A stretch of 64,000 bases of DNA, from positions 1 through 64,000 of IMG/VR virus record IMGVR_UViG_3300037461_001229, one strand, 5' to 3'. The notes below the pieces were generated by a model that saw only the letters and a list, made by a program, of their open reading frames with translations, was not told where the DNA came from and did not search any database. Below, in pieces: positions 15,287 to 52,100 of the stretch (the stretch's first letter is position 1; every line of letters begins with the position of its first letter). The translations under genes and the position numbers were made by a program. This stretch comes from a virus. Lineage: Duplodnaviria; Heunggongvirae; Uroviricota; Caudoviricetes.

Positions 15287-15300
15287 AAAAAATATTTATA

Positions 15301-17270: not shown

Positions 17271-17275
17271 ATCCC

Positions 17276-18187: not shown

Positions 18188-18190
18188 ATA

Positions 18191-21157: not shown

Positions 21158-21780
21158 GTCTTATATACTGGGAATTTAGACAGGTCTGGATATGGTAATT
21201 CTATGTCTTCCATATCTCTCTTAGTTCCATCCTGGTTATAAAACCCAAGCATCTGCTGTAGTCCTATAGCGGCCAGAATATGAGGGAGATAATAATTATG
21301 GCCTAACATATCAAGATTATCATCATGATACGAGCATTCCCTCCTCCCACTATAACGAAATCTCTTAAGCCATAAATAGGCAGTATAATCATCGGTAAGT
21401 ATAGCACCTCCCTTGCCTATCTTAAGGCGCTTCCATTGTCCCGTGAAAGACAAGCACATGAATGTACCAGGGATATACATATCGGCGGTAAATCTAAGCG
21501 CCGAATCCCATACCCGAGTTGGTTTTAATTGATATGCACCTTTTAGTAATCGCGGGGATGGCTCAAAGACAACCTTTCCTCCAGCCCATATTATTTCGCA
21601 GGGCACGGAAGGATATGTATGGGAAGGAATGGTTATTTCCTTGCCCTTTATATCCTCATACATCAATGCCATAAAAAGAGCATTGCTCTGATTATCTACG
21701 GTCACACAATAAGGAGCCCCGGTGTAGTCCGAGATCATCTCCTCAAATGCTTTGGTTATGTCATGTGGATTCATGGGCAA
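21154..21780 (-). CDS. DegT/DnrJ/EryC1/StrS-like aminotransferase, compact form
   Basis: FTGQWKRLKIGKGGAILTDD matches the PLP-lysine region (F..H..K....GEGG...T.D); only 208 aa so possibly truncated. Confidence 0.45.
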   Translation of the reverse strand: MPMNPHDITKAFEEMISDYTGAPYCVTVDNQSNALFMALMYEDIKGKEITIPSHTYPSVPCEIIWAGGKVVFEPSPRLLKGAYQLKPTRVWDSALRFTADMYIPGTFMCLSFTGQWKRLKIGKGGAILTDDYTAYLWLKRFRYSGRRECSYHDDNLDMLGHNYYLPHILAAIGLQQMLGFYNQDGTKRDMEDIELPYPDLSKFPVYKT

Positions 21781-30972: not shown

Positions 30973-31071
30973 CTCTTTGTGTATTAGTTAAACATAATCA
31001 CATTAATAATTAGCTATGAGCGACCCCCCGAAGGGAGGGGCGGCCTTTCACCGCCCAGACCTTGCGCTACG

Positions 31072-31371
31072 TTATTTTTCATCGGCCTCAACAATCTTAT
31101 ACTTTTTGAGAAGCAAATTATTCCACGTGTCTACGGTGAAACCATCGCCATACCTAACCACCCAATCCCTTGTAATTTTCCTCTCAGTCTCAGACTCCAC
31201 GAGGTCTATAATATCATTCTCATCCCCGTCAAAGCTTGCATCAATAACAATATTCCTATTAGCAACATGACCTATTGCCAATATAGAGTTACAAACTCTC
31301 TTTTCTCTCCGTTCATCAGAATAGATAATAAAATTCTCAAGATTAATCCACATAAAGGTTAAAGTTTCCAT
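31072..31371 (-). CDS. hypothetical protein
   Basis: 99-aa acidic ORF. Confidence 0.25.
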   Translation of the reverse strand: METLTFMWINLENFIIYSDERREKRVCNSILAIGHVANRNIVIDASFDGDENDIIDLVESETERKITRDWVVRYGDGFTVDTWNNLLLKKYKIVEADEK

Positions 31372-31742: not shown

Positions 31743-32192
31743 CTATAAGTCTATCTTATGATCAGATAAAAACTTACTCAACTGAGCCTGATATGTACTA
31801 TTAAAGTAATTAATAACTTCTATGCCCGCTATAGTTATCCTATAATACCTAATATCCTTTATAATATCACTATTCTCTATATACCCTAAACCTAATAACA
31901 ATCCAATATAATACTTTATCCTTCCCTTATCATAATACCCAGTTAACAAATATATCTGCCTCTCTGTAAACATCGATCCCTTGTAACAATGATATAAATA
32001 ACAGTTATTCAATACAACTATGGCATTGACAGGTAGCTTATACTTACTGCGTGTTGGCTTGATCAACCGGAACAGGTTGCTGAATAGTATGTATACTGCA
32101 TCCGGCCTACTGTTGAGTAATTGTAATGTATTGATAGATTGTGTGCTATTCACTTGTGTAACGCCCTCTTGTTTGTCTACCTTTGTAGTCAT
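31743..32192 (-). CDS. hypothetical protein
   Basis: 149-aa ORF; its 3' flank has operator-like palindromes. Confidence 0.25.
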   Translation of the reverse strand: MTTKVDKQEGVTQVNSTQSINTLQLLNSRPDAVYILFSNLFRLIKPTRSKYKLPVNAIVVLNNCYLYHCYKGSMFTERQIYLLTGYYDKGRIKYYIGLLLGLGYIENSDIIKDIRYYRITIAGIEVINYFNSTYQAQLSKFLSDHKIDL

Positions 32193-35257: not shown

Positions 35258-35315
35258 ACATTTGGAAATATCAAAAACAATTCTTATCTTTGTTTTTGAA
35301 TTGAATTATTAATAT

Positions 35316-35540
35316 TTTGCCCCCGCCACGGGAGATTTTGCCAACGAGTGTGGCCTGGATAAGTCGATATCAACGCTTCTGGCGGGGGTTTGAAAGTTCT
35401 TCGAAATGATGATATTGTCTCTAAAACCCCCAAGAGGGCGACCTGTCGTGGGCCGATAAGTAATGTAGGAGACCCCCGGGAGGGTATTGCCAGGTTCAGT
35501 TTCGGTAACGGGGCTGTTTTTCGGATACCCGCCCATCACC
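35316..35540 (+). ncRNA. GC-rich structured RNA-like region of unknown identity
   Basis: GC content far above flanks; competing helices cccccgcca(35320-28)/tggcggggg(35380-88) and gggggttt(35384-91)/aaaccccc(35424-31); spurious antisense ORF 35309..35539 is typical of an RNA gene. Confidence 0.25.
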
Positions 35541-35612
35541 GTGGCAGAGTGAAACGGATAATCATCAAAGACTCATAATCTTTGGATAGTGGGTTCGACT
35601 CCCATTGCCGCA
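35541..35612 (+). tRNA. tRNA-like element with CAT anticodon (Met/Ile2-like); imperfect, possibly pseudo-tRNA or att remnant
   Basis: manual cloverleaf: acceptor gtggcag/ttgccgc (2 GU), D stem gtga/tcat, perfect anticodon stem aaaga/tcttt with loop CTCATAA, T loop TTCGACT but only 4-bp T stem. Confidence 0.3.
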
Positions 35613-36247
35613 ACAAGGGCTAGCGTCCGTCAGAGTCGCATAGCGTCTCGAGGGCCGGAAGGTACAATGGTCGTGCGCCCTTTTTAAAATGTCACGTTTT
35701 CGCCGGCAAAAACGTGACAAATTGATAATAATTAATAATTAAATATAAAATGGCATTTATCCCATTATTGGTATTGTACTACATGGATAGTGAGGAGGAG
35801 ATAGAAAGAAAATCCAATCTTGGCCAGGAGCCCAGAATGGAAGAGGGGGAGATACGTATAAACACCATGCATATATGTTCTTATAATGAGACCGATAAGA
35901 GTCATGTGATATGCCGCATGACTAATGGAGATATACTTGAGCTCCCAATGCCGGTAGAGACATTCGAGGCGTTATTAGCCCAGTCTGAGGTGATATTGAA
36001 TTTTTCGGAGTTAAGCGATAATTAGTTCTTTATAGGTTGCCCGTAGGCGGGCAGACAGAACAATAACGGTTTGGATTACCGATTCATACTGTTTCTCACG
36101 GGTTTTATTGTTTGACGTGAGGGAATTCGTGAGCCTGCAAGAGAGAGTAAATGCAGTATCCCTACAATACGCGAGACCTTGTAAAGAATAGAAAAGGGGC
36201 AATTAAGCCCCTTTTCTTATTTACAAATTGTAAATTGCATCTATGAA

Positions 36248-40812: not shown

Positions 40813-41172
40813 ATGGAGGGGCAATACGTTTTAGACGGCTGTGAATATGAGGATTTAGAATCCTATGTGTGTACTGGAATATTTGGCTTTTGCGGATGTG
40901 TTGGCGAGTCGGCGTTACGTATTATAGATAAGGCTCTAGATCATTTTTCTACCTGCAGAGATAAGGGCACTTATTGGGACGACTTAGTAAAGGAGGTATT
41001 TAATGGCGACGAAGGTTCGGCCTATATCGTATCAAGCCTTCTTGATAATACTGAGCTAATAGAGCACGGCATGGCTATAAGGGGATCATGGCTCACGGAT
41101 AAGGGGACAGAAGTCCATTCTGACATTAAAAAAATAATTTCTCTATGGGATAATCAATCTCAGGTTACATGA
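40813..41172 (+). CDS. hypothetical protein
   Basis: 119-aa ORF with Cys pair CTGIFGFCGC. Confidence 0.25.
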   Translation: MEGQYVLDGCEYEDLESYVCTGIFGFCGCVGESALRIIDKALDHFSTCRDKGTYWDDLVKEVFNGDEGSAYIVSSLLDNTELIEHGMAIRGSWLTDKGTEVHSDIKKIISLWDNQSQVT

Positions 41173-42206
41173 TATCAGTAATAATACCATTTAAGAATGA
41201 TTTCAGCACTATAGAGGGCGTCCTGCATAATGTCTACCTGGGCATACAGCAAGATGACCTGGAGATTATCCTTGTGAACGACGGGAGCAAGCATACCAAT
41301 ACCAGGTTCCGCCCCATAGAACCCGCTAAAGACTTCTCCTTAAGAACCCAGAGATACGTTAAGGTAATCAATAACCCCATGGGCTATGGTGTGGGATACT
41401 CGTTCGATAGAGGTGCAGAGATAGCGCGTGGGGACATACTAGTACTCATGGGAGCCGACGTTTTCCCCAGGAGTGGTTGGGATAGTAAAGTAAAGGATGC
41501 CGTCCAAAGCAACCCTAATACACTTGGTTGTGCTACCTGCATAGGCTTGAATCCAGACAGGAAGAACCTGGATGATCCTAAAAATAAGATGAGGTATGGA
41601 GCAGACCTGTTATTTACCTATGGGCCGGAAGACACGCCGAAGGGGAGCGGGCTAAGGGACATCCATAATTTCTCTAACCTCTTCCGTGGCAGGTGGAGGA
41701 CAGATAAGGTAAGTGATTCGCCATGCGATATACCGTGCCTCATGGGTGCTTTCTATTTTACAAGCAGGGAGTACTATAGGTTGCTTGCCGGTTGGGACAC
41801 GAGGAGTGGAAATCATTGGAGGGGGCACCGTGCCTGGGGGCACCTGGAGCCATATATTAGCCTTAAGTCATGGTTAGTGGGCGGTGGCTGTACACTATAC
41901 CCGGATATCCAGGCCGGGCATGTTTTTGCTCGCATAACAGACAGGACTAAGAAATGGGACGGGGGTGTCCGTAACGAGAGTGATAGGTACTGGAATCAAC
42001 TCTTTATGCTTGAGACTATGATTATGGATACTGATCTCCAGCTAAAGCTCAATAACTTCCTTAAACCAAGAAAGAACCTTGGTATTGCTCGCAAGTGGAT
42101 AAAACAACACTATGATACTATTGAGCAGGTTAGGGCCGCCAATAGTCTTCTATTTAAGAACACTCCAGAGATATTCACAGAGAAATTTGGGTATAAACTA
42201 GACTAA
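41169..42206 (+). CDS. glycosyltransferase family 2
   Basis: MISVIIPFKNDFSTIEGVLHNV...EIILVNDGSKH ... LMGADVF (DXD-like). Confidence 0.65.
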   Translation: MISVIIPFKNDFSTIEGVLHNVYLGIQQDDLEIILVNDGSKHTNTRFRPIEPAKDFSLRTQRYVKVINNPMGYGVGYSFDRGAEIARGDILVLMGADVFPRSGWDSKVKDAVQSNPNTLGCATCIGLNPDRKNLDDPKNKMRYGADLLFTYGPEDTPKGSGLRDIHNFSNLFRGRWRTDKVSDSPCDIPCLMGAFYFTSREYYRLLAGWDTRSGNHWRGHRAWGHLEPYISLKSWLVGGGCTLYPDIQAGHVFARITDRTKKWDGGVRNESDRYWNQLFMLETMIMDTDLQLKLNNFLKPRKNLGIARKWIKQHYDTIEQVRAANSLLFKNTPEIFTEKFGYKLD

Positions 42207-43092: not shown

Positions 43093-44232
43093 ATGAGTTT
43101 AGTTTTTCTTCAAGTAGATAGCTGGCACAGCGTCCGTCCCGGGAAATACGTCAGGGACAGGGCTAATGGCTCGTATGTTGCGGTAGGCGACTACTACCTC
43201 CTGAACACAAACAGGATGGTGGATATCGTCTCGCTGGACATGGCGCATGTGCAGTTCAAATATAACCAGGCGCCGGATGACGCCAGATGCTCTCCCGATA
43301 CCATAACTGCTAATATTACGTTAGCTAGTTTGATAACGGCGCATGATACCGCACCTCCGTCTAAGTTTATGACACTACCTATCTTCCCCACCTGCGATAT
43401 TACCAGGATAGGGTTGGATACGCCGGTCTTTACTCAGATAGAGGGTGATGATATAGCTATGATCTATGCCACCCCAAAGGATTTCCTTCATGGGGTATGC
43501 CATATGGTCTATTACAGGAATTCATTCGAGAGGGTAACGTGCATCATTAATCTCGGACTGATGGATGTTTATTATCTCGTTGGATGGCCGTTAGAGGACT
43601 ATGACGGCAATGTCTATCGTACAGTAGCTATTGGTTCACAGGAGTGGATTTGTAGTGATCTTAAGGTTACTCATTATAGTAACGGTGTTGCAATACCCTA
43701 CATTACTCTTGGCGTGGACTGGATGGCGGATATAAGTGGGTGTTATTGTTTCTACAATAACGATCCCACTAATAAGGATGCTCTTGGGGCACTATACAAT
43801 TGGTATGCCGTTAATAATGCTAATGGGCTTGCTTACTTCAAGAGAGCAGGTGTGGCGGAGGCTGGATGGAGGATTCCTACCGTGGCTGACTGGACGACAC
43901 TAAGCACTACTGCTGGTGGAAATACTATTTCCGGGGGTAGGTTAAAAGAGAAGGGATTGGCTTATTGGGAGTCTCCCAATCTTGGAGCTACCGATCTCTA
44001 TGGATTTAGTTCTGTGGGTGCCGGCAATAGATATGTGGATTCAGATGACGGGGAGGGATGGGCTAGTATTAAGATATGGAATGATATTTGGTCTGCTGAT
44101 GCAGTTCCAGCCCCAGATGATGATGAGGCTTATTCTATATATCTTGGTTATCTTTCAGCAGCGTTTTTCCCATGGAATCACGAAAAATTTGGTGGTATGT
44201 CTGTACGTTGCGTAAGGGATATAGTTATTTAA
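43093..44232 (+). CDS. FISUMP (Fibrobacter succinogenes major paralogous) domain protein, receptor-binding/adhesin candidate
   Basis: GNVYRTVAIGSQEWICSDLKV...GALYNWYAV...AGWRIPTVADWTTL matches TIGR02145-type FISUMP blocks (G..Y.TV.IG.Q.WM.ENL ... G.LYNW.A ... GW.LP...EW..L). Confidence 0.6.
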   Translation: MSLVFLQVDSWHSVRPGKYVRDRANGSYVAVGDYYLLNTNRMVDIVSLDMAHVQFKYNQAPDDARCSPDTITANITLASLITAHDTAPPSKFMTLPIFPTCDITRIGLDTPVFTQIEGDDIAMIYATPKDFLHGVCHMVYYRNSFERVTCIINLGLMDVYYLVGWPLEDYDGNVYRTVAIGSQEWICSDLKVTHYSNGVAIPYITLGVDWMADISGCYCFYNNDPTNKDALGALYNWYAVNNANGLAYFKRAGVAEAGWRIPTVADWTTLSTTAGGNTISGGRLKEKGLAYWESPNLGATDLYGFSSVGAGNRYVDSDDGEGWASIKIWNDIWSADAVPAPDDDEAYSIYLGYLSAAFFPWNHEKFGGMSVRCVRDIVI

Positions 44233-44290: not shown

Positions 44291-44335
44291 TTTCCATAAT
44301 GCACTAAATATGTATCTTTGCAGAAACAAGAAGAC

Positions 44336-46894
44336 ATGGCTCAGAAGAAGAAAGAGACCAAATTATCATTTGAGAAAGATTTACAGGTAGAAGAGGCGAG
44401 CAAGCTTGGCATACGCCCGGAAGAGATCATACGCAACTTTGAGGACGTTGGCCGGCTGCCGGATGATTTTAACCCCTATGGAGGCGGCTATACTATAGCC
44501 AGGTCTAAGTTCTTGGGCGATGAGCCTCCCCATGGCCAGTACTGTGGGGGAGACTTTAAGCTGTGGGAAGTTATTAACGACGGAGACCCGTCACTAACCC
44601 CGGTTTACTTTAGCATGCCCGAGCCGCCGACAGATAGGACATTGATCGATGGCTATGGGCTAGACCCTGATGAGCAGTACTTCCGCCGGATCGAACTACC
44701 GAGGAAATTTCGGTTGATCGAAACCAAGGCCCTACAAGACCTGGCAGAGATCGAGAAGAAGAACCGGCAAGAGACCATACAGGGTTATAAGTTCTATCTT
44801 AAGTTCTGGGAGATAGTAGAACAGGAGAGAGATAACCTGGAGGAGGAGCTTATATGGCTTAAAAGGGTATGGTGGTGGAGAACTTATGGTTATTGGTACT
44901 ATAATGACGGGGAGCCGGTATTCCTACCTCCCGACTATTACGACTTCCTTAATTTCTACTTTATAGAGGAAGCGGTCAGGTACCCGGAGTACCGTGATGA
45001 CGTCAGGCGTAAGTACTGTTACTCACGTTATCTAGAAAGCTGTACTGAGACATTCAAAGATTTCGATGCTAACGGTATGGCCAAGAAGAATGCCGATGGT
45101 AAGTACGAGATGGTTGACCTTGGCCGACGGTTATTCTTCGGGGATGTGGAGCCCAAGACTCGTAGGACGGGGGCCACACACGAGGCCGTCCATAAGATAT
45201 TAAAGGGAGCCATGACCCATCTCTCTTATTTCAGTACCATCATCTCTTTTGAGGGTAATAACGCTGAAGTCCACTATAAAAAGAAGCTCTTGCCGGCTTT
45301 CGATGCTTATCCTATGGTTCTGAAGCCTATATGGGAGGGGAATCGCAGGCCCAATATACTAAGGCTTGATGCGCCGCCCAATGTCTACCACACAAGAGGT
45401 CTTAAAAGTGCCATAGCTTACTCGGACTCAGGGGGGCTGTTCGCTAATGAGGGGGATAGGCTTAATGGGGTGTTAAATGATGAGCAAGGCAAAAGTCTCG
45501 GATCAACAGCAGACATCTTTGAGAGGTGGCACATCAACAAATTCACCATGTCTACGGGTATGGGTATCAACATCCTTAAGGGAGTATATGTCAAGAACCC
45601 AAGTACGGTGGAGGATATGGAATCAACAAGTACGCCGTACCATAAGCTCTGTGAGTTATCTAATTTCTATAGACGGGTACCGGTTAAGGGTCAGACCATG
45701 GAGGGCTTTGCCAGGATATTTTTGCCGGCCTATCTCAGGCTTGAGGGGTATATTGACCGATTTGGTAAGTCAGTGGTGGAGACGCCTACAGAGAGACAGA
45801 TAAGGCTGTCGCCGGATGCGATCTTTGCAGTAAGTAAGAAGGGAGCCAGGGAGACGATGCAGGCAGAGAGAGACGCACTACTTGCACTCAACACGCCTGA
45901 GTCTCTTGAGCTCTACCGTAGTATCCGCAGAAAATCCCCGTTTACCTGGGATGAATGCTGGTTGGGGTCTGCAGGTAATGCCGGCTATAATCTTGAGATT
46001 ATAGATAAGCGCATGGGGGAACTTAACCAGCTTAAGTCCTTTGGTAAGATGCCTTATCGTGTGGGTTATTTTTATCGGGACACCTATCCTGATGGGACAG
46101 TGCTCTGGAAAGACGATCCTAATGACATACGGTTCAGGATATCGATGATTCTCCCGCCGGAACTATCTAATCAGAGGGAGATGATCGAGGTATGGGATGG
46201 TCTTAACCAGAAGTTTATCCCGGGATGGCGCCCAAGGAATGGGCAGCGGTTCACTCTCGGGTGCGACCCCTTCCGAAACCTTAAGGCTATAGAGGTTAAA
46301 TCAATGAGCAAGGCGGGTATGAGGTCGAGCACGTCACGGCAGTCCGATGGTGGTATCGCTGTACTATGGGAGTATGACCCCGCTATAGATGGCAACAAAC
46401 CTAAAAAAGACTGGGATAGCTTTAAATTCGTTTGTACATACAGGCATAGGCCATTAACACAAGAAGCGTATTTCGATGATGTACTGATGTGTGCCCAGTA
46501 TTTCGGAGCTATGATCTATCCTGAGCAGAACGTGGAAGCATTCCTCGTGCACCTCTATAAGAGAGGTTATGGAGGCTATGGTCTGCATGACTTTGATATT
46601 ATGACCGGTAGGCCCAAGGCGCTTCCCGGGAGGTATAACGCTACTGAGACTAATCAGGATATGGTTCGTGAGATCAAGGATTATATTGAGTTTAGGGGGC
46701 ATGTCGAAGATCACGATGACCTGCTAGCAGAAATTAAGTCGTTCAGGGGCGTTGAGGACTTTACCAGGCTTGACCTTAAGACTGCTGCCGGTATGGCACT
46801 ACTTGGCTCTAAGTCCCGCCATAGGGAGATATTAGGAGATAATAAAAGTATTGGGCTAGATTTGGACGATATCTTCCCGGTGAGATATTATTGA
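44336..46894 (+). CDS. terL: putative terminase large subunit
   Basis: position immediately upstream of portal-scaffold-capsid block; deviant P-loop-like PKTRRTGAT; nuclease-like LGCDPF / EYDPA Asp motifs in C-terminal half; start moved to ATG 44336 downstream of -7 box 44313-44320. Confidence 0.5.
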   Translation: MAQKKKETKLSFEKDLQVEEASKLGIRPEEIIRNFEDVGRLPDDFNPYGGGYTIARSKFLGDEPPHGQYCGGDFKLWEVINDGDPSLTPVYFSMPEPPTDRTLIDGYGLDPDEQYFRRIELPRKFRLIETKALQDLAEIEKKNRQETIQGYKFYLKFWEIVEQERDNLEEELIWLKRVWWWRTYGYWYYNDGEPVFLPPDYYDFLNFYFIEEAVRYPEYRDDVRRKYCYSRYLESCTETFKDFDANGMAKKNADGKYEMVDLGRRLFFGDVEPKTRRTGATHEAVHKILKGAMTHLSYFSTIISFEGNNAEVHYKKKLLPAFDAYPMVLKPIWEGNRRPNILRLDAPPNVYHTRGLKSAIAYSDSGGLFANEGDRLNGVLNDEQGKSLGSTADIFERWHINKFTMSTGMGINILKGVYVKNPSTVEDMESTSTPYHKLCELSNFYRRVPVKGQTMEGFARIFLPAYLRLEGYIDRFGKSVVETPTERQIRLSPDAIFAVSKKGARETMQAERDALLALNTPESLELYRSIRRKSPFTWDECWLGSAGNAGYNLEIIDKRMGELNQLKSFGKMPYRVGYFYRDTYPDGTVLWKDDPNDIRFRISMILPPELSNQREMIEVWDGLNQKFIPGWRPRNGQRFTLGCDPFRNLKAIEVKSMSKAGMRSSTSRQSDGGIAVLWEYDPAIDGNKPKKDWDSFKFVCTYRHRPLTQEAYFDDVLMCAQYFGAMIYPEQNVEAFLVHLYKRGYGGYGLHDFDIMTGRPKALPGRYNATETNQDMVREIKDYIEFRGHVEDHDDLLAEIKSFRGVEDFTRLDLKTAAGMALLGSKSRHREILGDNKSIGLDLDDIFPVRYY

Positions 46895-46923
46895 AAATAT
46901 TTTGTAATATTAAATATTATATT

Positions 46924-46931
46924 TATCTTTG
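46924..46931 (+). promoter_or_regulatory. Bacteroidota sigma-A -7 element TAnnTTTG (tRNA sub-operon 1)
   Basis: tatctttg. Confidence 0.5.
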
Positions 46932-46979
46932 CGTTATGATTAGAATCCAACATATAGAGCAGCCTATAGACTTACTTAC

Positions 46980-47036
46980 GGGGTGAGACAACTCTCTATT
47001 TGAGTATATACCCACCCCATAAGGTGGGTTTTTTAT
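46980..47036 (+). promoter_or_regulatory. attenuator-like leader: antiterminator ggggtg/cacccc versus terminator cccacc-ccataa-ggtggg + T7
   Basis: mutually exclusive helices share segment 47013-47018; terminator T-run abuts first tRNA. Confidence 0.4.
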
Positions 47037-47038
47037 TT

Positions 47039-47113
47039 CTGGGTGTTCCGCAGATGGCTATACGGGCCTCCCCTGGAAGGAGGTGTTCGGGGGTTCGAAT
47101 CCCTCTACCCAGA
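47039..47113 (+). tRNA. tRNA-Pro (TGG)
   Basis: manual fold: acceptor ctgggtg/tacccag, anticodon stem cctcc/ggagg loop CCTGGAA, T arm ggggg-TTCGAAT-ccctc. Confidence 0.55.
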
Positions 47114-47119
47114 CAATAT

Positions 47120-47191
47120 TGGCATATAGTTCAATGGTAAGAACGCACGGCTTATACCCCTGTAATTCTGGTTCGAGTCCAGGTATGCCAA
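47120..47191 (+). tRNA. tRNA with TAT anticodon (Ile2-like)
   Basis: acceptor tggcata/tatgcca perfect; D stem gttc/gaac; loop CTTATAC; T arm tctgg-TTCGAGT-ccagg. Confidence 0.5.
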
Positions 47192-47193
47192 CT

Positions 47194-47266
47194 GTGTACG
47201 ATGCTCGTATGGAAGAGTACCGGATTGTGACCCCGGTTAAAGGGAGTTCGAATCTCCTCGTACACC
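47194..47266 (+). tRNA. tRNA-His (GTG)
   Basis: acceptor gtgtacg/cgtacac; loop TTGTGAC; T arm gggag-TTCGAAT-ctcct. Confidence 0.6.
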
Positions 47267-47269
47267 TAT

Positions 47270-47343
47270 GCTCGGTTGGTGAAGTTGGCTAACACGCAGG
47301 ACTTTCAATCCTGTATTCAGGAGTTCGAGACTCCTACCGAGCA
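47270..47343 (+). tRNA. tRNA-Glu (TTC)
   Basis: acceptor gctcggt/accgagc; anticodon stem cagga/tcctg loop CTTTCAA; T arm aggag-TTCGAGA-ctcct. Confidence 0.65.
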
Positions 47344-47346
47344 CAT

Positions 47347-47417
47347 TGCCTAGTCGTATAAAGGCAGTACATCTGGCTTTGAACCAGGCGGAATTGGATC
47401 GTTACCAGTCTAGGCAT
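47347..47417 (+). tRNA. tRNA-Gln (TTG)
   Basis: acceptor tgcctag/ctaggca; anticodon stem tctgg/ccagg loop CTTTGAA; T arm attgg-ATCGTTA-ccagt (A54). Confidence 0.5.
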
Positions 47418-47448
47418 CAAATAAATTTGGAAATTAAAAATAAAGTAT

Positions 47449-47456
47449 TATCTTTG
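47449..47456 (+). promoter_or_regulatory. Bacteroidota -7 element (tRNA sub-operon 2)
   Basis: tatctttg. Confidence 0.5.
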
Positions 47457-47533
47457 CAGTGTAAAATAAAGTTAATGCAGAGCATAAAGAGAAATATGGT
47501 GAATATTGATCGTACAGGCGCAACCTTACGGAA

Positions 47534-47603
47534 GGGCATTCCCATATGATCTTTTAAGAGATTAGAAGTGGAATGCCCTCAGAGATGGGGGCATTCTTAT
47601 TTT
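47534..47603 (+). promoter_or_regulatory. attenuator-like leader: antiterminator gggcattcc/ggaatgccc versus terminator gaatgccc/gggcattc + TTATTTT
   Basis: 9-bp and 8-bp alternative helices sharing 47571-47578. Confidence 0.45.
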
Positions 47604-47673
47604 GGCGCATAGTCTAAAGGTACGACGCTTCTCTGATACGGAAGTAGTGATAGTTCGAGTCTGTCTGTGCCAA
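47603..47673 (+). tRNA. tRNA-Ile (GAT)
   Basis: acceptor tggcgca/tgtgcca; loop CTGATAC; T arm gatag-TTCGAGT-ctgtc. Confidence 0.55.
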
Positions 47674-47676
47674 CAT

Positions 47677-47755
47677 AGCGGGTTAGGCTGAAGGTGGTTA
47701 CAGCGCGGTCTCATAAGCCGTAACGTCGGGAGTTCGATTCTCTCACCCGCTACCA
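47677..47755 (+). tRNA. tRNA-Met (CAT), CCA encoded
   Basis: acceptor agcgggt/acccgct; loop CTCATAA; T arm gggag-TTCGATT-ctctc; 3' ACCA present. Confidence 0.55.
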
Positions 47756-47756
47756 T

Positions 47757-47831
47757 GGGGGATTAGCTCAGAGGCAGAGCGGCATCCTGTTAAGATGAGG
47801 GTCGGGTTTTCAATATACTCATCCCCCGCCA
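47757..47831 (+). tRNA. tRNA-Asn (GTT), CCA encoded
   Basis: acceptor gggggat/atccccc; D stem gctc/gagc; loop CTGTTAA; T loop TTCAATA. Confidence 0.55.
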
Positions 47832-47834
47832 AAG

Positions 47835-47906
47835 GTCCTTATGGTGTAATGGAGAGCACACGGGTCTTCTAAGCCCTTAGTCAGGGTTCGACTCCTTGTA
47901 GGGACG
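47835..47906 (+). tRNA. tRNA-Arg (TCT)
   Basis: acceptor gtcctta/tagggac; loop CTTCTAA; T arm caggg-TTCGACT-ccttg. Confidence 0.55.
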
Positions 47907-47911
47907 CACAT

Positions 47912-47984
47912 AGCTCGTAGGTCAAACGGTTAAGATGTCACCCTGTCACGGTGTACGGAACGGGTTCAACTCCCGCACGAGCTG
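47912..47984 (+). tRNA. tRNA-Asp (GTC)
   Basis: acceptor agctcgt/acgagct; loop CTGTCAC; T loop TTCAACT. Confidence 0.6.
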
Positions 47985-47989
47985 CAAAT

Positions 47990-48061
47990 GGGACGTTAGT
48001 ATAATGGCTATTATTTCTGATTTGCACTCAGAAGATGAGGTTTCGATTACCTCACGCTCCA
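47990..48061 (+). tRNA. tRNA-Ala (TGC)
   Basis: G3:U70 Ala identity pair present; anticodon stem tctga/tcaga loop TTTGCAC; T arm gaggt-TTCGATT-acctc. Confidence 0.65.
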
Positions 48062-48066
48062 CTAAT

Positions 48067-48138
48067 GCGTCGTAGGTGTTGATGGTTGCATGTCAGTCTT
48101 CCAAACTGAGGGAGTGAATTCGAATTTCACACGATGCT
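48067..48138 (+). tRNA. tRNA-Gly (TCC)
   Basis: acceptor gcgtcgt/acgatgc; stem tcagt/actga loop CTTCCAA; T arm gtgaa-TTCGAAT-ttcac. Confidence 0.65.
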
Positions 48139-48142
48139 CTAA

Positions 48143-48215
48143 GTCCTCTTAGCAAAGCGGCGTATAGCTCCACCCTTTTAAGGTGGCGAGGATGGTTCGA
48201 CTCCATCAGGGGACA
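48143..48215 (+). tRNA. tRNA-Lys (TTT)
   Basis: acceptor gtcctct/aggggac; stem ccacc/ggtgg loop CTTTTAA; T arm gatgg-TTCGACT-ccatc. Confidence 0.65.
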
Positions 48216-48216
48216 C

Positions 48217-48291
48217 ACGCTCGTAGCATAATGGAAAGTGCACTTGGCAACGAACCAAGGTTATGTGAGGGTTCGATTCCTTCCGGGCGTA
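48217..48291 (+). tRNA. tRNA-Arg (ACG) with A33
   Basis: acceptor acgctcg/cgggcgt; stem cttgg/ccaag loop CAACGAA; 7-nt variable loop; T arm gaggg-TTCGATT-ccttc. Confidence 0.5.
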
Positions 48292-48296
48292 CATAT

Positions 48297-48368
48297 GCTC
48301 CACAAGCATTGTTGGCGATGCTCTCGCCTTGTAAGCCTGAGAGCGGGGTTCGATTCCTCGGTGGAGCT
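48297..48368 (+). tRNA. tRNA-Thr (TGT)-like with irregular anticodon arm
   Basis: perfect acceptor gctccac/gtggagc, D stem gcat/atgc, T arm cgggg-TTCGATT-cctcg; anticodon region ctctc-gccTTGTAAgcct-gagag folds either as 5-bp stem with 13-nt loop or as a mismatched canonical stem. Confidence 0.4.
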
Positions 48369-48371
48369 CAT

Positions 48372-48444
48372 AGCCTGATAGTGTAGTGGTTAAGCACGGC
48401 ACCCTTACAAGATGTTAGCTACAGTTCGACTCTGTATCGGGCTA
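48372..48444 (+). tRNA. tRNA-Val (TAC)
   Basis: acceptor agcctga/tcgggct; loop CTTACAA; T arm tacag-TTCGACT-ctgta. Confidence 0.6.
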
Positions 48445-48487
48445 CAAAAATAAATCCATAAAAGTTTGCATATTAAAAAATAATTAT

Positions 48488-48495
48488 TATCTTTG
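48488..48495 (+). promoter_or_regulatory. Bacteroidota -7 element (tRNA sub-operon 3)
   Basis: tatctttg. Confidence 0.5.
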
Positions 48496-48548
48496 TGGTA
48501 TGAAAAAACTATGGTGTTCATATAGTTCGTTTTTACTCTTGCTCTCGG

Positions 48549-48620
48549 GGCGAGGTAGTTGAGCTATATCCACTGCAGATATACAAGGAGCCTCGCCTAT
48601 AAAGCGGGGCTTTTTGTTTT
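48549..48620 (+). promoter_or_regulatory. attenuator-like leader: antiterminator ggcgagg/cctcgcc versus terminator gcctcgc-ctataaa-gcggggc + T-run
   Basis: alternative helices share 48590-48597; T-run ends one nt before tRNA. Confidence 0.45.
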
Positions 48621-48696
48621 GCTCTGGTAGTCCAATTGGCAGAATGACAACAGACTTAAACCCTGTCCAGTGTCGGTTCGAATCCGACTCAGAGCA
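48621..48696 (+). tRNA. tRNA with TAA anticodon (Leu-type anticodon, class I architecture)
   Basis: acceptor gctctgg/tcagagc; loop CTTAAAC; T arm gtcgg-TTCGAAT-ccgac; only 76 nt, no long variable arm. Confidence 0.45.
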
Positions 48697-48699
48697 CAC

Positions 48700-48772
48700 G
48701 CTACGGTAGCGAATTGGTATAGCACGGTGACTTAGAATCATCGGATTGTGGATTCGAATTCCACCCGTAGCA
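48700..48772 (+). tRNA. tRNA with TAG anticodon (Leu-type anticodon, class I architecture)
   Basis: acceptor gctacgg/ccgtagc perfect; stem ggtga/tcatc loop CTTAGAA; T arm gtgga-TTCGAAT-tccac; 73 nt. Confidence 0.5.
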
Positions 48773-48776
48773 CAAT

Positions 48777-48860
48777 GGAGGGTTCGCCAGCGGCCTGGCA
48801 ACTGGTCTTGAAAACCAGGATGCATCTGAAAGGACGGGGGATCGACACCTCAACCCTCCG
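48777..48860 (+). tRNA. tRNA-Ser (TGA), class II
   Basis: acceptor ggagggt/accctcc; stem ctggt/accag loop CTTGAAA; long variable arm; T loop ATCGACA. Confidence 0.6.
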
Positions 48861-48866
48861 CAATAT

Positions 48867-48947
48867 GGAAGTACTCCCAAGATGGTGAATGGGGCATGAC
48901 TGTAAATCATGTGCTTCGGCTGAGAGGTTCGAATCCTTATACTTCCA
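48867..48947 (+). tRNA. tRNA-Tyr (GTA), class II
   Basis: acceptor ggaagta/tacttcc; stem catga/tcatg loop CTGTAAA; variable arm gcttcggc; T loop TTCGAAT. Confidence 0.6.
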
Positions 48948-48990
48948 CGGGGGTTTATTAAACTTTTGTTATCTTTGTAAGAAAAAAAAT

Positions 48991-49386
48991 ATGTTTAATA
49001 ATGTAAAGAACACAAAGAAGCAGGGGGATATTGGAATGGGCATGGCAATAGGTTATTTTACTGCCCAGGGATATACGGTATTGATTCCTTTAACCGATAG
49101 TCAGGATTATGATTTGGTTATAGAGAAAAATGGTCTTTTAAAGAAGGTACAGGTAAAGACAACTTCGTATAAGACTCCTAATGGGATATTTAATATCAAT
49201 CTTAGCGTGAAAGGTGGGAATAGGTCTTATAATACCATAAAGAAGTTTAACCCTGATCTTGTTGATTATTTATTTATTTTTACATCTAATGGAGATATGT
49301 ATTTTATCCCATCTCCCCAAAATATTACGAGTCACCTGAATCTCGGTAAAAAATATCAGGACTTTAAAGTATTCATGGATGGTTGA
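48991..49386 (+). CDS. small PD-(D/E)XK-like nuclease candidate embedded in the tRNA array
   Basis: ORF 48889..49386 trimmed to ATG after -7 box 48970-48977; DYDLVIEKNGLLKKVQVKT gives D...E.K-like motif; 3' end overlaps tRNA-Ser by 10 nt. Confidence 0.35.
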   Translation: MFNNVKNTKKQGDIGMGMAIGYFTAQGYTVLIPLTDSQDYDLVIEKNGLLKKVQVKTTSYKTPNGIFNINLSVKGGNRSYNTIKKFNPDLVDYLFIFTSNGDMYFIPSPQNITSHLNLGKKYQDFKVFMDG

Positions 49387-49461
49387 CCGAGAGGTAAGGT
49401 ACAAGTTTGCTAAACTTAGGTTGGGATAAAACCCAGGGGGGATCGTTACCCTCACCCTCCG
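49377..49461 (+). tRNA. tRNA-Ser (GCT), class II
   Basis: acceptor ggatggt/accctcc (one mismatch); loop TTGCTAA; variable-arm stem tggg/ccca; T loop ATCGTTA. Confidence 0.5.
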
Positions 49462-49464
49462 CAT

Positions 49465-49535
49465 GGGCAATTAGTGTAATGGTAGCACGACAGCCTCCAA
49501 AACTGTTTGTAACTGTTCGAGTCGGTTATCGCCCG
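49465..49535 (+). tRNA. tRNA-Trp (CCA)
   Basis: acceptor gggcaat/atcgccc (one mismatch); D stem gtgt/gcac; loop CTCCAAA; T arm aactg-TTCGAGT-cggtt. Confidence 0.55.
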
Positions 49536-49539
49536 CAAT

Positions 49540-49612
49540 GGAGATTAAGCAAATCTGGTGATCGCAGATGCCTGAAGAGCATAAGAGCGTGGATCGTAAC
49601 CACAAATCTCCA
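49540..49612 (+). tRNA. tRNA-Phe (GAA)
   Basis: acceptor ggagatt/aatctcc perfect; loop CTGAAGA; T loop ATCGTAA. Confidence 0.5.
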
Positions 49613-49616
49613 CTAC

Positions 49617-49683
49617 GGCCATATAAGAGCACAGAATTATGTTTGCAAAACATAAGAGGAGGGTGCGTCTCCCTCTATGGCCT
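49617..49683 (+). tRNA. tRNA-Cys (GCA)-like, short D arm and non-canonical T loop (possible pseudo-tRNA)
   Basis: acceptor ggccata/tatggcc perfect; anticodon stem tatgt/acata loop TTGCAAA; T-position helix gaggg-tgcgtct-ccctc lacks TTC; 67 nt. Confidence 0.3.
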
Positions 49684-49707
49684 CAAAGCAGTTATAATAA
49701 AATGAAT

Positions 49708-49715
49708 TATCTTTG
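49708..49715 (+). promoter_or_regulatory. Bacteroidota -7 element upstream of portal gene
   Basis: tatctttg 19 nt before ATG 49734. Confidence 0.5.
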
Positions 49716-49733
49716 CATTATAATTTATAGTGC

Positions 49734-52100
49734 ATGATACCTATCATTGACGATTCTTACAAGAATAAGGAGTGGGCGTTTCCCCCACGTGATCAGAATC
49801 CAGCTAATAAAGGAGCGGAATATTGCAGGCAGAATAACCAGGCTATATACAGCCTTTTCTGTCGTAATAAAATGGCGTGGGGAGCGGGTGATCTTCGAAC
49901 ATTCGGGACACTAAGGGATTATTCTAATGGCCGCCAAAGCACAGATCAGTATAAATCGTTTCTATTAAATGATATAAACGACAACGGCACTTCTGTATCT
50001 TTCGACTCATTCGATCAACTACCGCTTTCCCGTGTTGCAAAACGCCAGGGCTGGTACAATATGATTTGGGATAACATTTCCCCGGCTCCGATGATTATGA
50101 ATGCCTTACATGGGCAATTCGATAAGCTTGACTTTGATCTTAACGTAAGTGTTGTTGACCCTGATTCCCGGGCCCTGGAAGAAGAGCAAGCATTCCTTAA
50201 ACTTATAGAGGCACAGAACGCCGAATGGCAGAATAAGATCAAGATGGAGATGGGTATTCCTATTGATGAAGATGTTATGATGCCAAGGTCTAAGGAAGAG
50301 TTAGATATGCTCAAGGCCAAGGATGGGTTTAAGCTTAACGTAGCCCGGGCAATGCAGAAGATACTCAGGCATTCATTTGAGGTCAGCCGGTGGGATAATG
50401 TAGTAAGAAAGAAGCTTATTGATGATCTTATATGTCTTGGCTATTGCGTGGTCAGGGATTTCTATAATGCTGAGACCGGCATGTGGGAATGCGAATATGT
50501 TGATCCAGCCACCTATGTCACACAGGTTTCTAATGAGACGGATTATTCTGACGCCGAGTATGGTGGTCAGTTTATCCTTATGACGATATCAAACCTGAGA
50601 AATAAATTACCTGATGTACCGGAAGAAGAGTTAAAGGCCATGGCCGGTACTATGCTTGGTAATTACGGCAACCCCAAGGAAGACTGGCCCAATCATTACT
50701 CACTACTTGACCCAAGTACCGGTATCTGCAATTATGATGGGTTTAAGGTGCCGGTATTCAAGGCGTGGTGGGTGGATACTGATACTAAGAAAAGGTTATG
50801 GGTTAAGTCCCGCTATGGCAGGGAAAAGATACTTGACATCCCTTATGATTCCGATGAGAAGACTATGGATAAGCTCGCCGGTGGGAGACAGGAGGTACGT
50901 CCGGTATTCATAAGGAATATCCGTGAGTGCTCGTGGGTTATAGGGAAGGATTGGGTGTTCGACTACGGTGTTATAAAGATGGCGTCAAGGGATGGTTACA
51001 AGAAGCCACAGGCTCCCTATCACGTTGAGCAGTTACTTCAGCCGTCCATAATTGAGAGGATACGTTCTATCTTAGACCAGATAGAGATCACCTTCCTCAG
51101 ATACCAGAACTCGCTCGCACAGATGTTTGAGAATGGTATTGCAGTTAACGTCTCGATGTTGGGGAATGTCAACCTCGGTGGTGGGATGCTTAAGCCCGCC
51201 CAGGTTATTAAACTGTACAAACAGACAGGGGTCTTACCGTATCAATATGGTGCCAGCACGGGTCATTATACAGGTGGAGCAGCACTGCCGATCACTCCTA
51301 TCCCCGGGGGTATGCAAACCAGAGTGGAGGAGACCATACGTATGATGGATATGTGGATGCAGCAGATAGAGAGGCATACCGGTATTAACCCGGTGACCCT
51401 TGGGGCTACTCCTGATCCTAATGCGCCCGTTGGTACTACCGAAGCAGCCATGCAGGCAACCGCCAATGTTATTAAACCAATAGCAGATGCATGCTTTGAG
51501 GTTAAGGAAAGCGTGGGTACTTCTATGATGAGAAGAATTCAGATAGGGATACGGAATAGTGAACAGGTACGCAAGAGCTATGGCGGAATAGTCAGCCCTA
51601 TGGATATAGATGCATTAAGGCTTATGGAGTCGGATGGTGTGCAATATGGGCTATCACTTAAGGCCAAGCCGGATACCAGGGCTAAGATGCGGTTCGAGAA
51701 GTGGATCGACATTGCCCTGCAGAATACTCGTGAGAAGAGGCCGGGTATTGATCTTAATGATGCTATATACTTCATGTCAAGACTTGAGGCTGGTGATGAC
51801 CTTAATGACCTTGAAAAACAGCTTGAGTACGCGATAGAGAAGAACAAGCAGGAAGCTGCCGCCCAGAGTGAGAGAATGATTCAGGCACAGGGAGAACAGA
51901 ACACACAGCTTGAACAGGCTAAGATGCAATCGGAGATGGCAAGGATCAAGGCAGAAGCAGAAGCCAGTATGGCCGAAGAGGCTCTGCGCGGTCAGATAAA
52001 GGCACAGCAGTCAAGTAAAGAGATAGTAGCACAACTATGGTCTGATTTAAGGCAGACTGCCGATGCTGAAGACGGTATCTTAACACAGACAGGAAGATGA
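49734..52100 (+). CDS. putative portal protein
   Basis: 788 aa, position between terminase and scaffold/capsid, C-terminal Ala/Glu/Gln-rich coiled-coil tail. Confidence 0.5.
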   Translation: MIPIIDDSYKNKEWAFPPRDQNPANKGAEYCRQNNQAIYSLFCRNKMAWGAGDLRTFGTLRDYSNGRQSTDQYKSFLLNDINDNGTSVSFDSFDQLPLSRVAKRQGWYNMIWDNISPAPMIMNALHGQFDKLDFDLNVSVVDPDSRALEEEQAFLKLIEAQNAEWQNKIKMEMGIPIDEDVMMPRSKEELDMLKAKDGFKLNVARAMQKILRHSFEVSRWDNVVRKKLIDDLICLGYCVVRDFYNAETGMWECEYVDPATYVTQVSNETDYSDAEYGGQFILMTISNLRNKLPDVPEEELKAMAGTMLGNYGNPKEDWPNHYSLLDPSTGICNYDGFKVPVFKAWWVDTDTKKRLWVKSRYGREKILDIPYDSDEKTMDKLAGGRQEVRPVFIRNIRECSWVIGKDWVFDYGVIKMASRDGYKKPQAPYHVEQLLQPSIIERIRSILDQIEITFLRYQNSLAQMFENGIAVNVSMLGNVNLGGGMLKPAQVIKLYKQTGVLPYQYGASTGHYTGGAALPITPIPGGMQTRVEETIRMMDMWMQQIERHTGINPVTLGATPDPNAPVGTTEAAMQATANVIKPIADACFEVKESVGTSMMRRIQIGIRNSEQVRKSYGGIVSPMDIDALRLMESDGVQYGLSLKAKPDTRAKMRFEKWIDIALQNTREKRPGIDLNDAIYFMSRLEAGDDLNDLEKQLEYAIEKNKQEAAAQSERMIQAQGEQNTQLEQAKMQSEMARIKAEAEASMAEEALRGQIKAQQSSKEIVAQLWSDLRQTADAEDGILTQTGR

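Follow-up and report, generated by a model that had tools for sequence, protein, structure and literature searches.

So far, ribosome-mediated attenuation is known from the genes of amino-acid biosynthesis, from resistance genes and from a few genes that encode synthetases. The enterobacterial trp, his, leu, thr, ilv and pheA attenuators each combine a leader open reading frame (ORF), whose regulatory codons are tandem codons of one amino acid, with an intrinsic terminator and an antiterminator that is masked by the ribosome at the end of the ORF, and the genes they govern encode biosynthetic enzymes. Related logic operates in pheST, through its pheM leader, and in the T-box riboswitches, which adjust aminoacyl-tRNA synthetase genes to tRNA charging: the supply of charged tRNA steers a component of translation by deciding whether a terminator or an antiterminator forms. 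The pheM leader responds to a single amino acid and acts on a synthetase, and T-boxes bind one uncharged tRNA directly, with no ribosome. Here we describe a tRNA array in a Caudoviricetes virus, carried on positions 1 to 64,000 of IMG/VR record IMGVR_UViG_3300037461_001229 (the window; all coordinates refer to its full 64,000 nt unless another contig is named). The array lies at 47039-49683 on the + strand, flanked by the genes for the large terminase (TerL; 44318-46894, phrog_6681) and the portal (49734-52100, phrog_6547). We propose, with a probability of roughly three in four and resting in part on folding models, that its three tRNA operons are each under a leader-peptide transcription attenuator that senses tRNA supply.

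The array is interrupted by three gaps of about 110-185 nt. A first-pass annotation, made from the letters of this DNA, had the genes and most of their oddities right but took these gaps for spacers, although three units of promoter, leader ORF and terminator sit there. Each gap holds, in order, a bipartite promoter-like site, a short ORF and a GC-rich hairpin with a T-run that abuts the first base of the next tRNA, all on the + strand. The promoter-like sites belong to the Bacteroidota -33/-7 type, TTTG-N17-21-TATCTTTG, which occurs nine times in the window against 0.09 expected. In the first unit, site P1 (TTTG-N19-TATCTTTG, 46901..46931) lies 4 nt upstream of the ATG of leader ORF L1 (MIRIQHIEQPIDLLTG and a stop codon, 46936..46986), and an intrinsic terminator with stem arms ACCCACC/GGTGGGT and a T-run (47010..47038; terminator-like site 47010-47029) abuts tRNA-Pro. 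The second unit comprises P2 (47426..47456), L2 (MQSIKRNMVNIDRTGATLRKGIPI and stop, 47475..47549) and a 12-bp stem with a T-run (47570..47602; terminator-like site 47570-47597) abutting tRNA-Ile(GAT), and the third comprises P3 (48465..48495), L3 (MKKLWCSYSSFLLLLSGRGS and stop, 48500..48562) and a 14-bp stem with a T-run (48583..48620; terminator-like site 48583-48617) abutting tRNA-Leu(TAA). The leader ORFs are 16-24 codons long. Between 46700 and 49800 these three hairpins are the sole strong terminator-like sites on the + strand, each directly 5' of a tRNA cluster and with a promoter-like site upstream, and a scan for the bipartite motif found no further promoter for the tRNA clusters. The L1 and L3 mRNAs are probably leaderless, because the ATG stands only 4 nt past the -7 box. 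Thus, each set of tRNA genes is preceded by an intrinsic terminator, and between promoter and terminator lies a short ORF enriched in codons read by the tRNAs downstream.

This enrichment takes the form of one continuous run of cognate codons in each leader. Codons 5-11 of L1 (CAA CAT ATA GAG CAG CCT ATA) are read by all five tRNAs of operon 1, Pro, Ile(TAT), His, Glu and Gln. The run in L2, codons 5-16 (AAG AGA AAT ATG GTG AAT ATT GAT CGT ACA GGC GCA), serves 11 of the 11 tRNAs of operon 2, namely Ile(GAT), Met, Asn, Arg(TCT), Asp, Ala, Gly, Lys, Arg(ACG), Thr and Val, and codons 4-12 of L3 (CTA TGG TGT TCA TAT AGT TCG TTT TTA) serve the full eight of operon 3, Leu(TAA), Leu(TAG), Ser(TGA), Tyr, Ser(GCT), Trp, Phe and Cys. 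Under standard wobble rules 22 of the 24 tRNAs can read a codon of the leader of their operon, a score reached by 3 of 10^6 shuffles of operon assignment; if U34 is allowed to read four ways all 24 are matched, which none of 10^6 shuffles attains. Among ~11,000 codon stretches of the same length drawn from the phage's own genes, none equals any of the leaders in both coverage and length of the cognate run.

In each leader a segment at or adjacent to the stop codon can pair alternatively with the 5' arm of the terminator. These antiterminator 5' arms, as predicted by folding, are GGGGTGAG at 46980..46987 in L1, which overlaps the stop codon (partner 47011-47018), AAGGGCATTCC at 47533..47543 in L2 (partner 47568-47579) and GGGGCGAGG at 48548..48556 in L3 (partner 48590-48598), all on the + strand. 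We scanned the effect of ribosome position on folding with a 30-nt footprint and a transcript ending just 5' of the 3' arm of the terminator; other footprint sizes were also run. With the A site on the cognate run, the antiterminator pairing probability was 0.7-0.9 in all three leaders, and it collapsed within about one codon of the end of the run, after codon 11 in L1, at about codon 16 in L2 and at codons 12-13 in L3. Changing the footprint size shifted this boundary by at most one codon. In L3 the antiterminator rose only at the start of the run. There, the codon run (48509-48529) pairs with 48559-48578 in a predicted 1:2 hairpin that sequesters it until a ribosome occupies it; as in the classical logic of trp, the antiterminator would be available only with a ribosome on the run. 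Thus, in silico, antiterminator and terminator are predicted to be mutually exclusive, with the outcome depending on the position of the ribosome.

TerL-based searches yielded ~70 related contigs, metagenomic and viral, at 50-79% identity in TerL (labelled L0xx). About a dozen of these hold the array with the same three-unit organisation, usually upstream of TerL and not downstream as here. L1 is conserved in L013, L028, L045, L081, L094 and L003. L2 is conserved in eight relatives, and the changes within its run (GAT/GAC, CGT/CGC, GGC/GGT) are mostly at third positions and keep the same tRNA. In L3 the order of residues is permuted between relatives (LWCSYSSFL, LWCSYSLFS, ICWSYSSFL, CWSYSSFL) and the composition is kept. 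The codon content of the leaders thus appears to be under selection. When 24 homologous leaders were folded, the antiterminator-permissive stretch coincided with the cognate run. The first leader of L013 (LEAD1) has unrelated terminator and antiterminator sequences and a longer run, of 10 codons, and its permissive stretch comprised exactly those ten. The arms of the LEAD1 terminator also compensate among relatives (CCCACC/GGTGGG, GCCCGCC/GGCGGG, CCCTCC/GGAGGG), changes that we took directly from the sequences, the MAFFT alignment of LEAD1 being out of register in the terminator; the terminator and antiterminator arms of L2 and L3 are nearly invariant in their alignments.

The design recurs independently in an unrelated megaphage, LR745206 (634 kb), reached through a search with tRNA-Leu, with different sets of tRNAs and leaders. 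Here too short ORFs with strong terminators precede the tRNA clusters, and their composition tracks the tRNAs downstream. The leader MTTTQQIQQQQINQTD, which ends in a stop codon and contains six CAA and one CAG, precedes Gln(TTG); leaders with the cores ..PVNPQPQDQDP.., ..THKNFSKSHKWF.., ..SKSSSRSSSMS.., ..SYESYYEE.. and ..ISIAVIGNGAGAI.. precede, respectively, Pro and four Asp, His-Phe-His-Phe, Arg and Ser, Tyr and Glu, and Ile-Gly-Met-Gly; and a 38-codon leader whose first 21 codons all specify T, M, N, L, V or I stands before an Asn-Arg-Leu-Val-Ile-Thr array. Individual units gave P values from 0.07 to 2e-7 and a Fisher combined P of 7e-16, figures that are somewhat optimistic because the ORFs were picked as the best for each cluster.

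Two sites in other phages are recorded here in their own right. In Bacteroides phage crAss001 (L124), positions 1640-1682, directly 5' of the first tRNA of the array, read TTATCTTTGCATC-ATGATTAGAAGATAA; the promoter box and first codons (ATG ATT AGA) are as in LEAD1, and the ORF ends after four codons with no terminator. This site may be what is left of such a leader, or a leader in minimal form. In Streptomyces phage Alone3 (L130), a short ORF at 5519-5641, MTPTTTTCQ..., has four Thr codons in a row (P about 5e-4 for this run), lies just upstream of three tRNA-Thr and two tRNA-Leu genes, and is possibly a weak actinophage instance of the same principle.

Gene content, codon–anticodon correspondence, terminators, alternative pairings and conservation can be read directly from these sequences; we infer that the leaders are translated and that ribosome stalling acts as the switch between termination and read-through. 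In this scheme each leader would be a codon sampler, one continuous run matched exactly to the tRNAs of the operon behind it. If any of the sampled aminoacyl-tRNAs were scarce, the ribosome would stall within the run and leave the stop-adjacent antiterminator arm free to pair with the 5' arm of the terminator, and RNA polymerase would enter the tRNA genes. With all sampled tRNAs plentiful, the ribosome would reach the last codons and the stop codon and mask the antiterminator arm, the terminator would fold and the tRNA genes would stay off. The outcome would be a negative-feedback loop through which phage tRNAs are made when needed. Its physiological trigger is a matter for speculation, candidates being codon demand, host shut-off and tRNA-cleaving defences.

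The units share with the enterobacterial attenuators the leader ORF with its regulatory codons, the intrinsic terminator and an antiterminator predicted to be masked by a ribosome at the end of the ORF, and L3 also has their classical 1:2 / 2:3 / 3:4 arrangement. They differ in governing tRNA genes, so that tRNA and not the amino acid would be restored, in offering each of their 5, 11 or 8 tRNAs about one codon instead of tandem codons of one amino acid, in the apparently leaderless mRNAs of L1 and L3, and in being phage-borne. In contrast to T-boxes and pheM, the sensor would read many codons and its output would be a whole set of tRNAs. Rfam searches of 46850-49750 gave no match to a T-box riboswitch even at E<=10; known Rfam leaders produced sub-threshold chance matches only (Thr, Trp and Phe leaders, RprA), which were caused by the terminator hairpins.

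The array encodes 24 tRNAs with 24 distinct anticodons and serves all 20 amino acids. Operon 1 consists of the genes for tRNA-Pro(TGG) (47039..47113), Ile(TAT) (47120..47191), His(GTG) (47194..47265), Glu(TTC) (47270..47343) and Gln(TTG) (47347..47417). Operon 2 holds Ile(GAT) (47603..47673), Met(CAT) (47677..47755), Asn(GTT) (47757..47831), these last two with an encoded CCA, Arg(TCT) (47835..47906), Asp(GTC) (47912..47984), Ala(TGC) (47990..48061), Gly(TCC) (48067..48138), Lys(TTT) (48143..48215), Arg(ACG) (48217..48291), Thr(TGT) (48297..48368) and Val(TAC) (48372..48444). Operon 3 holds Leu(TAA) (48621..48696), Leu(TAG) (48700..48772), the class II genes Ser(TGA) (48777..48860), Tyr(GTA) (48867..48947) and Ser(GCT) (49377..49461), and Trp(CCA) (49465..49535), Phe(GAA) (49540..49612) and Cys(GCA) (49617..49683). 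All are on the + strand. Each codon box or half-box has a single tRNA, and U34 is present in all four-codon boxes except CGN, which is read by Arg(ACG); therefore the array is a complete minimal decoding set of 24 elongator tRNAs. ARAGORN called no suppressor tRNA, and we saw no sign of a recoded genome, the ORFs being long under the standard code.

The tRNA genes were called with ARAGORN, at default and lowered thresholds, and with Rfam model RF00005 (gathering score 29 bits, and also at an E-value threshold). Default ARAGORN gave 21 array tRNAs on the + strand (47039-49536) and an isolated tRNA-Met at 35541. RF00005 at its gathering score also gave 21 in the array, adding Ser(GCT) and Phe(GAA), both of which default ARAGORN had missed and lowered ARAGORN thresholds picked up. 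Together the two programs detect 23 of the 24, and 22 match RF00005 with 29.5-63.7 bits, 21 of them at the gathering threshold and Tyr(GTA), at 38.7 bits, in the E-value search. For Ser(TGA), called tRNA-Ser by ARAGORN, Rfam returned a sub-threshold match to the tRNA-Sec model of the same clan (40.5 bits, gathering 47). The remaining element, at 49617-49683, escaped both programs under relaxed settings as well; its equivalent terminates the array in every relative. In an alignment of ten orthologues, its acceptor, anticodon and T stems were paired in 100% of cells at all 17 pairs, with compensatory changes at 14 of the 17, and it has the anticodon GCA and discriminator U73. Since the stems covary, we take it to be a genuine tRNA-Cys of 67 nt and not a pseudogene. 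The first-pass count of 24 genes between terminase and portal thus holds, and its minimum of 18 anticodons is exceeded.

The isolated tRNA-Met(CAT) (35541-35612) lies in a ~400-nt GC-rich, apparently non-coding stretch (35261-35700, +) that begins just past a promoter-like site (35261-35292) and has a hairpin and T-run at its end. Its G1-C72 pair and AT-rich anticodon stem do not obviously mark it as an initiator, and it is without a leader ORF of the array type.

Several of the tRNAs had been flagged in the first-pass annotation as non-canonical, and most of these features were seen again. As claimed, the loop of Arg(ACG), CAACGAA, has A33, which is unique among nine orthologues; Pro(TGG) carries C33, which recurs in relatives. 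The T loops said to begin with A54 number four, ATCGTTA in Gln and Ser(GCT), ATCGACA in Ser(TGA) and ATCGTAA in Phe; in three of these T58 (U58) accompanies A54, as if the 54-58 pair had been swapped. The Cys gene has, as described, a T loop without TTC (TGCGTCT) and a reduced D region of just 12 nt. The anticodon arm of Thr(TGT) is odd in that its stem has two internal mismatches (37.9 bits), but the expanded loop that had been proposed did not stand, as ARAGORN draws a loop of 7 nt. All Thr(TGT) orthologues have canonical arms, which marks the arm seen here as a weak stem of this lineage, not an expanded loop by design. It had been stated that canonical isotype calls and normal scores would reduce the oddities to folding errors, and pseudogene flags to decayed genes; the predictors do give canonical isotypes and normal scores, and the oddities are nevertheless real. 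Since the flagged tRNAs are conserved with covariation in relatives, they are not pseudogenes, and the Leu genes without a long arm, A33/C33, A54/U58 and the Cys gene with its reduced D arm are real, tolerated variants typical of phage tRNAs. The discriminators are canonical for each isotype (C73 in His; U73 in Gln, Gly, Thr and Cys; G73 in Asn, Asp, Ser and Trp; A73 in Leu, Tyr and Phe). The single Thr and Arg(ACG) copies of this genome may have reduced function.

As the first-pass annotation had it, Leu(TAA) (76 nt) and Leu(TAG) (73 nt) lack a long variable arm; their variable loops are 5 and 4 nt, unlike the variable stem-loop of more than 10 nt that marks the class II tRNA-Leu of bacterial cells. 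Their Rfam scores are normal (49.6 and 52.5 bits). The phage clade holds both forms, of 73-77 nt and of 81-83 nt, with versions of 80 nt in L027 and L028 against 73-76 nt elsewhere, so that arm loss is visible in progress. The short genes align collinearly with versions of 80-92 nt, with the gap exactly at the variable arm, and both forms share A14, A15, G18G19 and A73, of which A14, A15 and G19 are invariant in the alignment. A73 is found in all Leu genes of the clade called by default ARAGORN; one Leu(CAA) call at relaxed threshold has C73. The E. coli leucyl-tRNA synthetase (LeuRS) needs A73 and the D/T-loop hinge (A14, A15, G18G19), and does not require the long arm (PMC9976931). The Leu genes of the window carry this identity set. 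Among 36 TerL homologues, Leu fills 51% of the cells aligned with TTA and 69% of those aligned with CTA (36-72% for control Leu codons), and both codons interchange freely with CTT, CTC and CTG; we therefore rejected reassignment of TTA and CTA by the armless tRNAs. From the standard behaviour of the two codons, the shared identity bases and the indifference of LeuRS to the arm, the short genes are best read as ordinary Leu tRNAs that have lost an arm dispensable for bacterial LeuRS.

Class I tRNA-Leu is common in phages and not exceptional here. The Leu(TAA) of crAss001 has a 6-nt variable loop, GenBank annotations give tRNA-Leu genes of 73-75 nt in Lactobacillus phage LP65 and in Alone3, and LR745206 has short and long forms. 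The genes from crAss001, LP65 and Alone3 align end to end with those of the window, and they and animal mitochondrial tRNA-Leu are alike in a Leu anticodon, A73 and the lack of a long arm. Arms vary in other isotypes too: an armless tRNA-Tyr of ~68-70 nt occurs in some relatives and in the megaphage (L004 310-379; L132 about 32090-32160), an 83-nt tRNA-Thr (L045 2682-2764) and an 85-nt tRNA-Pro (L094 668-752) have gained an extra arm, and a 74-nt tRNA-Ser(GCT) is annotated in Alone3. Among the relatives tRNA-Ser, unlike Tyr, is never armless, which fits the requirement of seryl-tRNA synthetase for a long variable arm. With Leu and Tyr arms lost and Thr and Pro arms gained, the clade is a natural experiment on the rules of tRNA identity.

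Several observations weigh against attenuation by these leaders. In L3 the terminator is favoured at equilibrium in every modelled state, and the model therefore needs co-transcriptional (kinetic) competition. The L1 and L2 antiterminators form in ribosome-free RNA too, so these units would be on unless efficiently translated. With one or two codons per tRNA, sensitivity to one scarce tRNA may be lower than in the classical attenuators with tandem codons. Some relatives depart from the match between leader and array: in contigs of the L003 type LEAD1 is followed by a decayed Pro gene, Phe and Cys and no longer matches, and in L026 LEAD2 is followed by Ile only, arrangements that we regard as deletion derivatives with the leader kept before a reduced array; the LEAD2 of L045 has no Val codons and no Gly codon inside the run, and the LEAD3 of L081/L085 is without CTA. 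In the megaphage, besides the choice of the best ORF per cluster, several units are individually weak (P 0.01-0.07) and the modelled logic of the long leader is less clean. The same scan and inspection found no comparable leaders in the arrays of crAss001, LP65, Alone3 and LR756501.

Other readings must be set beside these points. The hairpins might simply separate constitutive tRNA units, as ordinary terminators that leak or as processing signals, with small ORFs that are untranslated and have no regulatory role; the dominance of the L3 terminator whatever the ribosome position, and the spacers of the crAss001, LP65 and LR756501 arrays, which lack such ORFs, would both fit. Promoters upstream of terminators make no sense for plain terminators, however, and neither the exact match of leader codons to downstream tRNAs, nor a codon composition kept while residue order and terminator sequences vary, nor the recurrence in a megaphage with different sets would be explained, and we consider this account quite unlikely. 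Read-through could instead depend on an antitermination factor or antitermination RNA of the phage (Q/N-like or put-like), with the ORF incidental, as in the PR'-6S-tR' region of lambda, where a promoter, a short transcript and a terminator are similarly laid out ahead of late genes. The units do stand among late genes, yet Rfam finds no put-like or other known element, the three leaders have no common sequence for one factor to recognise, and both the codon–anticodon match and the coincidence of the antiterminator-permissive stretch with the cognate run would go unexplained; a mechanism of this kind is very unlikely.

It is also conceivable, if highly improbable, that the leader transcripts come from independent genes for small RNAs or micropeptides that act in trans, each with a terminator of its own, and that the tRNAs are made by occasional read-through. 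The terminated RNAs would be stable and hairpin-ended, and attenuator-derived small RNAs and leader peptides with trans functions exist, rnTrpL/peTrpL being an example (PMC7968998). What is conserved in the leaders is codon composition and not residue order, and in two phage lineages the composition follows the tRNAs downstream; a trans role could be compatible with attenuation and would not replace it. Equally hard to credit is the idea that the flagged tRNAs (short Leu, weak-stem Thr, A33 Arg and reduced Cys) are decaying pseudogenes or have changed identity, with TTA and CTA perhaps not read as Leu. Thr scores low, its two mismatches and the A33 of Arg are peculiar to this genome, and Cys is invisible to ARAGORN and Rfam, all of which would suit decay. 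Against it stand the persistence of short Leu, complete with A73 and a Leu-type D arm (also present in Leu(TAA) of the window), throughout the clade and in other phages, the alignment of TTA and CTA with Leu and their exchange with CTT, CTC and CTG, the 14 compensatory pairs among 17 in the Cys stems, the canonical discriminator base of every isotype, and the presence of a codon for each flagged tRNA in a leader.

A tRNA array, armless Leu tRNAs and an endonuclease within the array are of already known kinds; what is new under the attenuation reading is that tRNA genes are controlled, that many codons are sampled and that the device belongs to a phage. Full-text literature searches, of incomplete coverage, returned no description of leader-peptide control of tRNA genes, and with these codon-sensing leaders a virus would seem to restrict tRNA synthesis to times of shortage in the cell, in a manner not described before. 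If this is so, attenuation would extend to tRNA genes, to viruses and to a many-input (OR-gate) sensor of potential use in synthetic biology. Why phages carry tRNAs and when they express them is debated; proposals include compensating for codon usage, surviving host shut-off and evading defences that cleave tRNA. A sampler leader would show a phage measuring tRNA supply and responding to it, and would turn the question into a directly testable circuit. More tentatively, and with rather less than even likelihood, the leaders may be a codon-by-codon monitor of the host tRNA pool, whose depletion by an anticodon nuclease or by phage-induced shut-off switches on a replacement set, and the odd features of the tRNAs (A33/C33, altered T loops, deleted or added arms) may make them poor substrates for host enzymes that target tRNA. 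Surveillance of the tRNA pool would then be a previously unrecognised general counter-defence circuit of phages, present in at least two unrelated lineages.

GenBank holds no close phage relatives; the TerL of the window is ~24% identical to those of Cellulophaga and Flavobacterium phages, and at the DNA level only single tRNAs matched. A portal-based search of viral contigs gave two loci, neither with tRNAs, and leader-pattern scans of viral contigs gave mainly chance matches and one new array (L085/L094). A genome scan returned one contig of a metagenome-assembled genome (MAG) of Bacteroidales, with no array within the part examined; in the 85-kb contig L123 (MAG Bacteroidales bacterium fen_983, PLLX01000048.1) TerL is 71% identical to that of the window. 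The promoter type and L123 are the only hints to the host, and they point to Bacteroidota. In L060 (2924-6490) the TerL homologue has ~1200 residues compared with ~850, which suggests an intein or another in-frame insertion.

Operon 3 is split between Tyr and Ser(GCT) by a small ORF (48991..49386, +) that had been described as PD-(D/E)XK-like. A Pfam match confirms this (PDDEXK_5, PF11645; E 3.9e-22, 79.2 bits, cut-off 26.1), as does similarity to the structure of I-Ssp6803I (PDB 2OST; E 1.1e-6) with the motif YDLV...VQVK conserved, and the reported 10-nt overlap with tRNA-Ser(GCT), whose first 10 nt (49377-49386) are the end of the ORF, is correct. A -7-box-like sequence, TTATCTTTG (48969..48977, +), precedes it. 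L004, L006 and L013 have Tyr directly next to Ser(GCT), whereas 428 nt separate the two here, and on this comparison the ORF appears to be a free-standing homing-endonuclease-like insertion. It shares PF11645 and the association with a tRNA gene with I-Ssp6803I, but that enzyme is borne on a group I intron of tRNA-fMet, whereas the ORF stands free between two tRNA genes with a promoter-like box of its own. Dense arrays in lytic regions broken by free-standing endonuclease ORFs are likewise found in the T4 tRNA region (segB), T5-like arrays (HNH genes) and the crAss001 array (Gp8 HNH). On inspection, the crAss001 array has a promoter and, unlike the window, no unit of leader ORF and terminator. 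We know of no attenuator in the T4 or T5 tRNA arrays.

HNH-type endonuclease-like ORFs lie elsewhere in the arrays of relatives (L034 1334-1915, L066 571-1020, L085 613-1023), that of L066 above the Pfam HNH cut-off and the other two by motif only; these arrays seem to be hot spots for free-standing endonucleases. In L048 an RtcB RNA ligase gene (519-1685; PF01139, E 6e-115) lies in the tRNA array between operon 1 and leader 2, a hint that these phages face tRNA damage. Elsewhere in the window, a Twister-sister ribozyme (RF02681) at 31006-31072 (-) matches over the full length of the model (44.7 bits vs gathering 34, E 1e-6). The phage may be temperate, as it has a tyrosine integrase gene (PF00589; 2834-3733, +). 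A sugar-modification cluster at about 14000-21200 (-) encodes glycosyltransferases, a WbqC-like protein, a thiamine pyrophosphate (TPP) dehydrogenase E1 component and an ATP-grasp protein, and a further glycosyltransferase (41169-42206) and a Fib_succ_major-domain protein (43093-44232) are also encoded.

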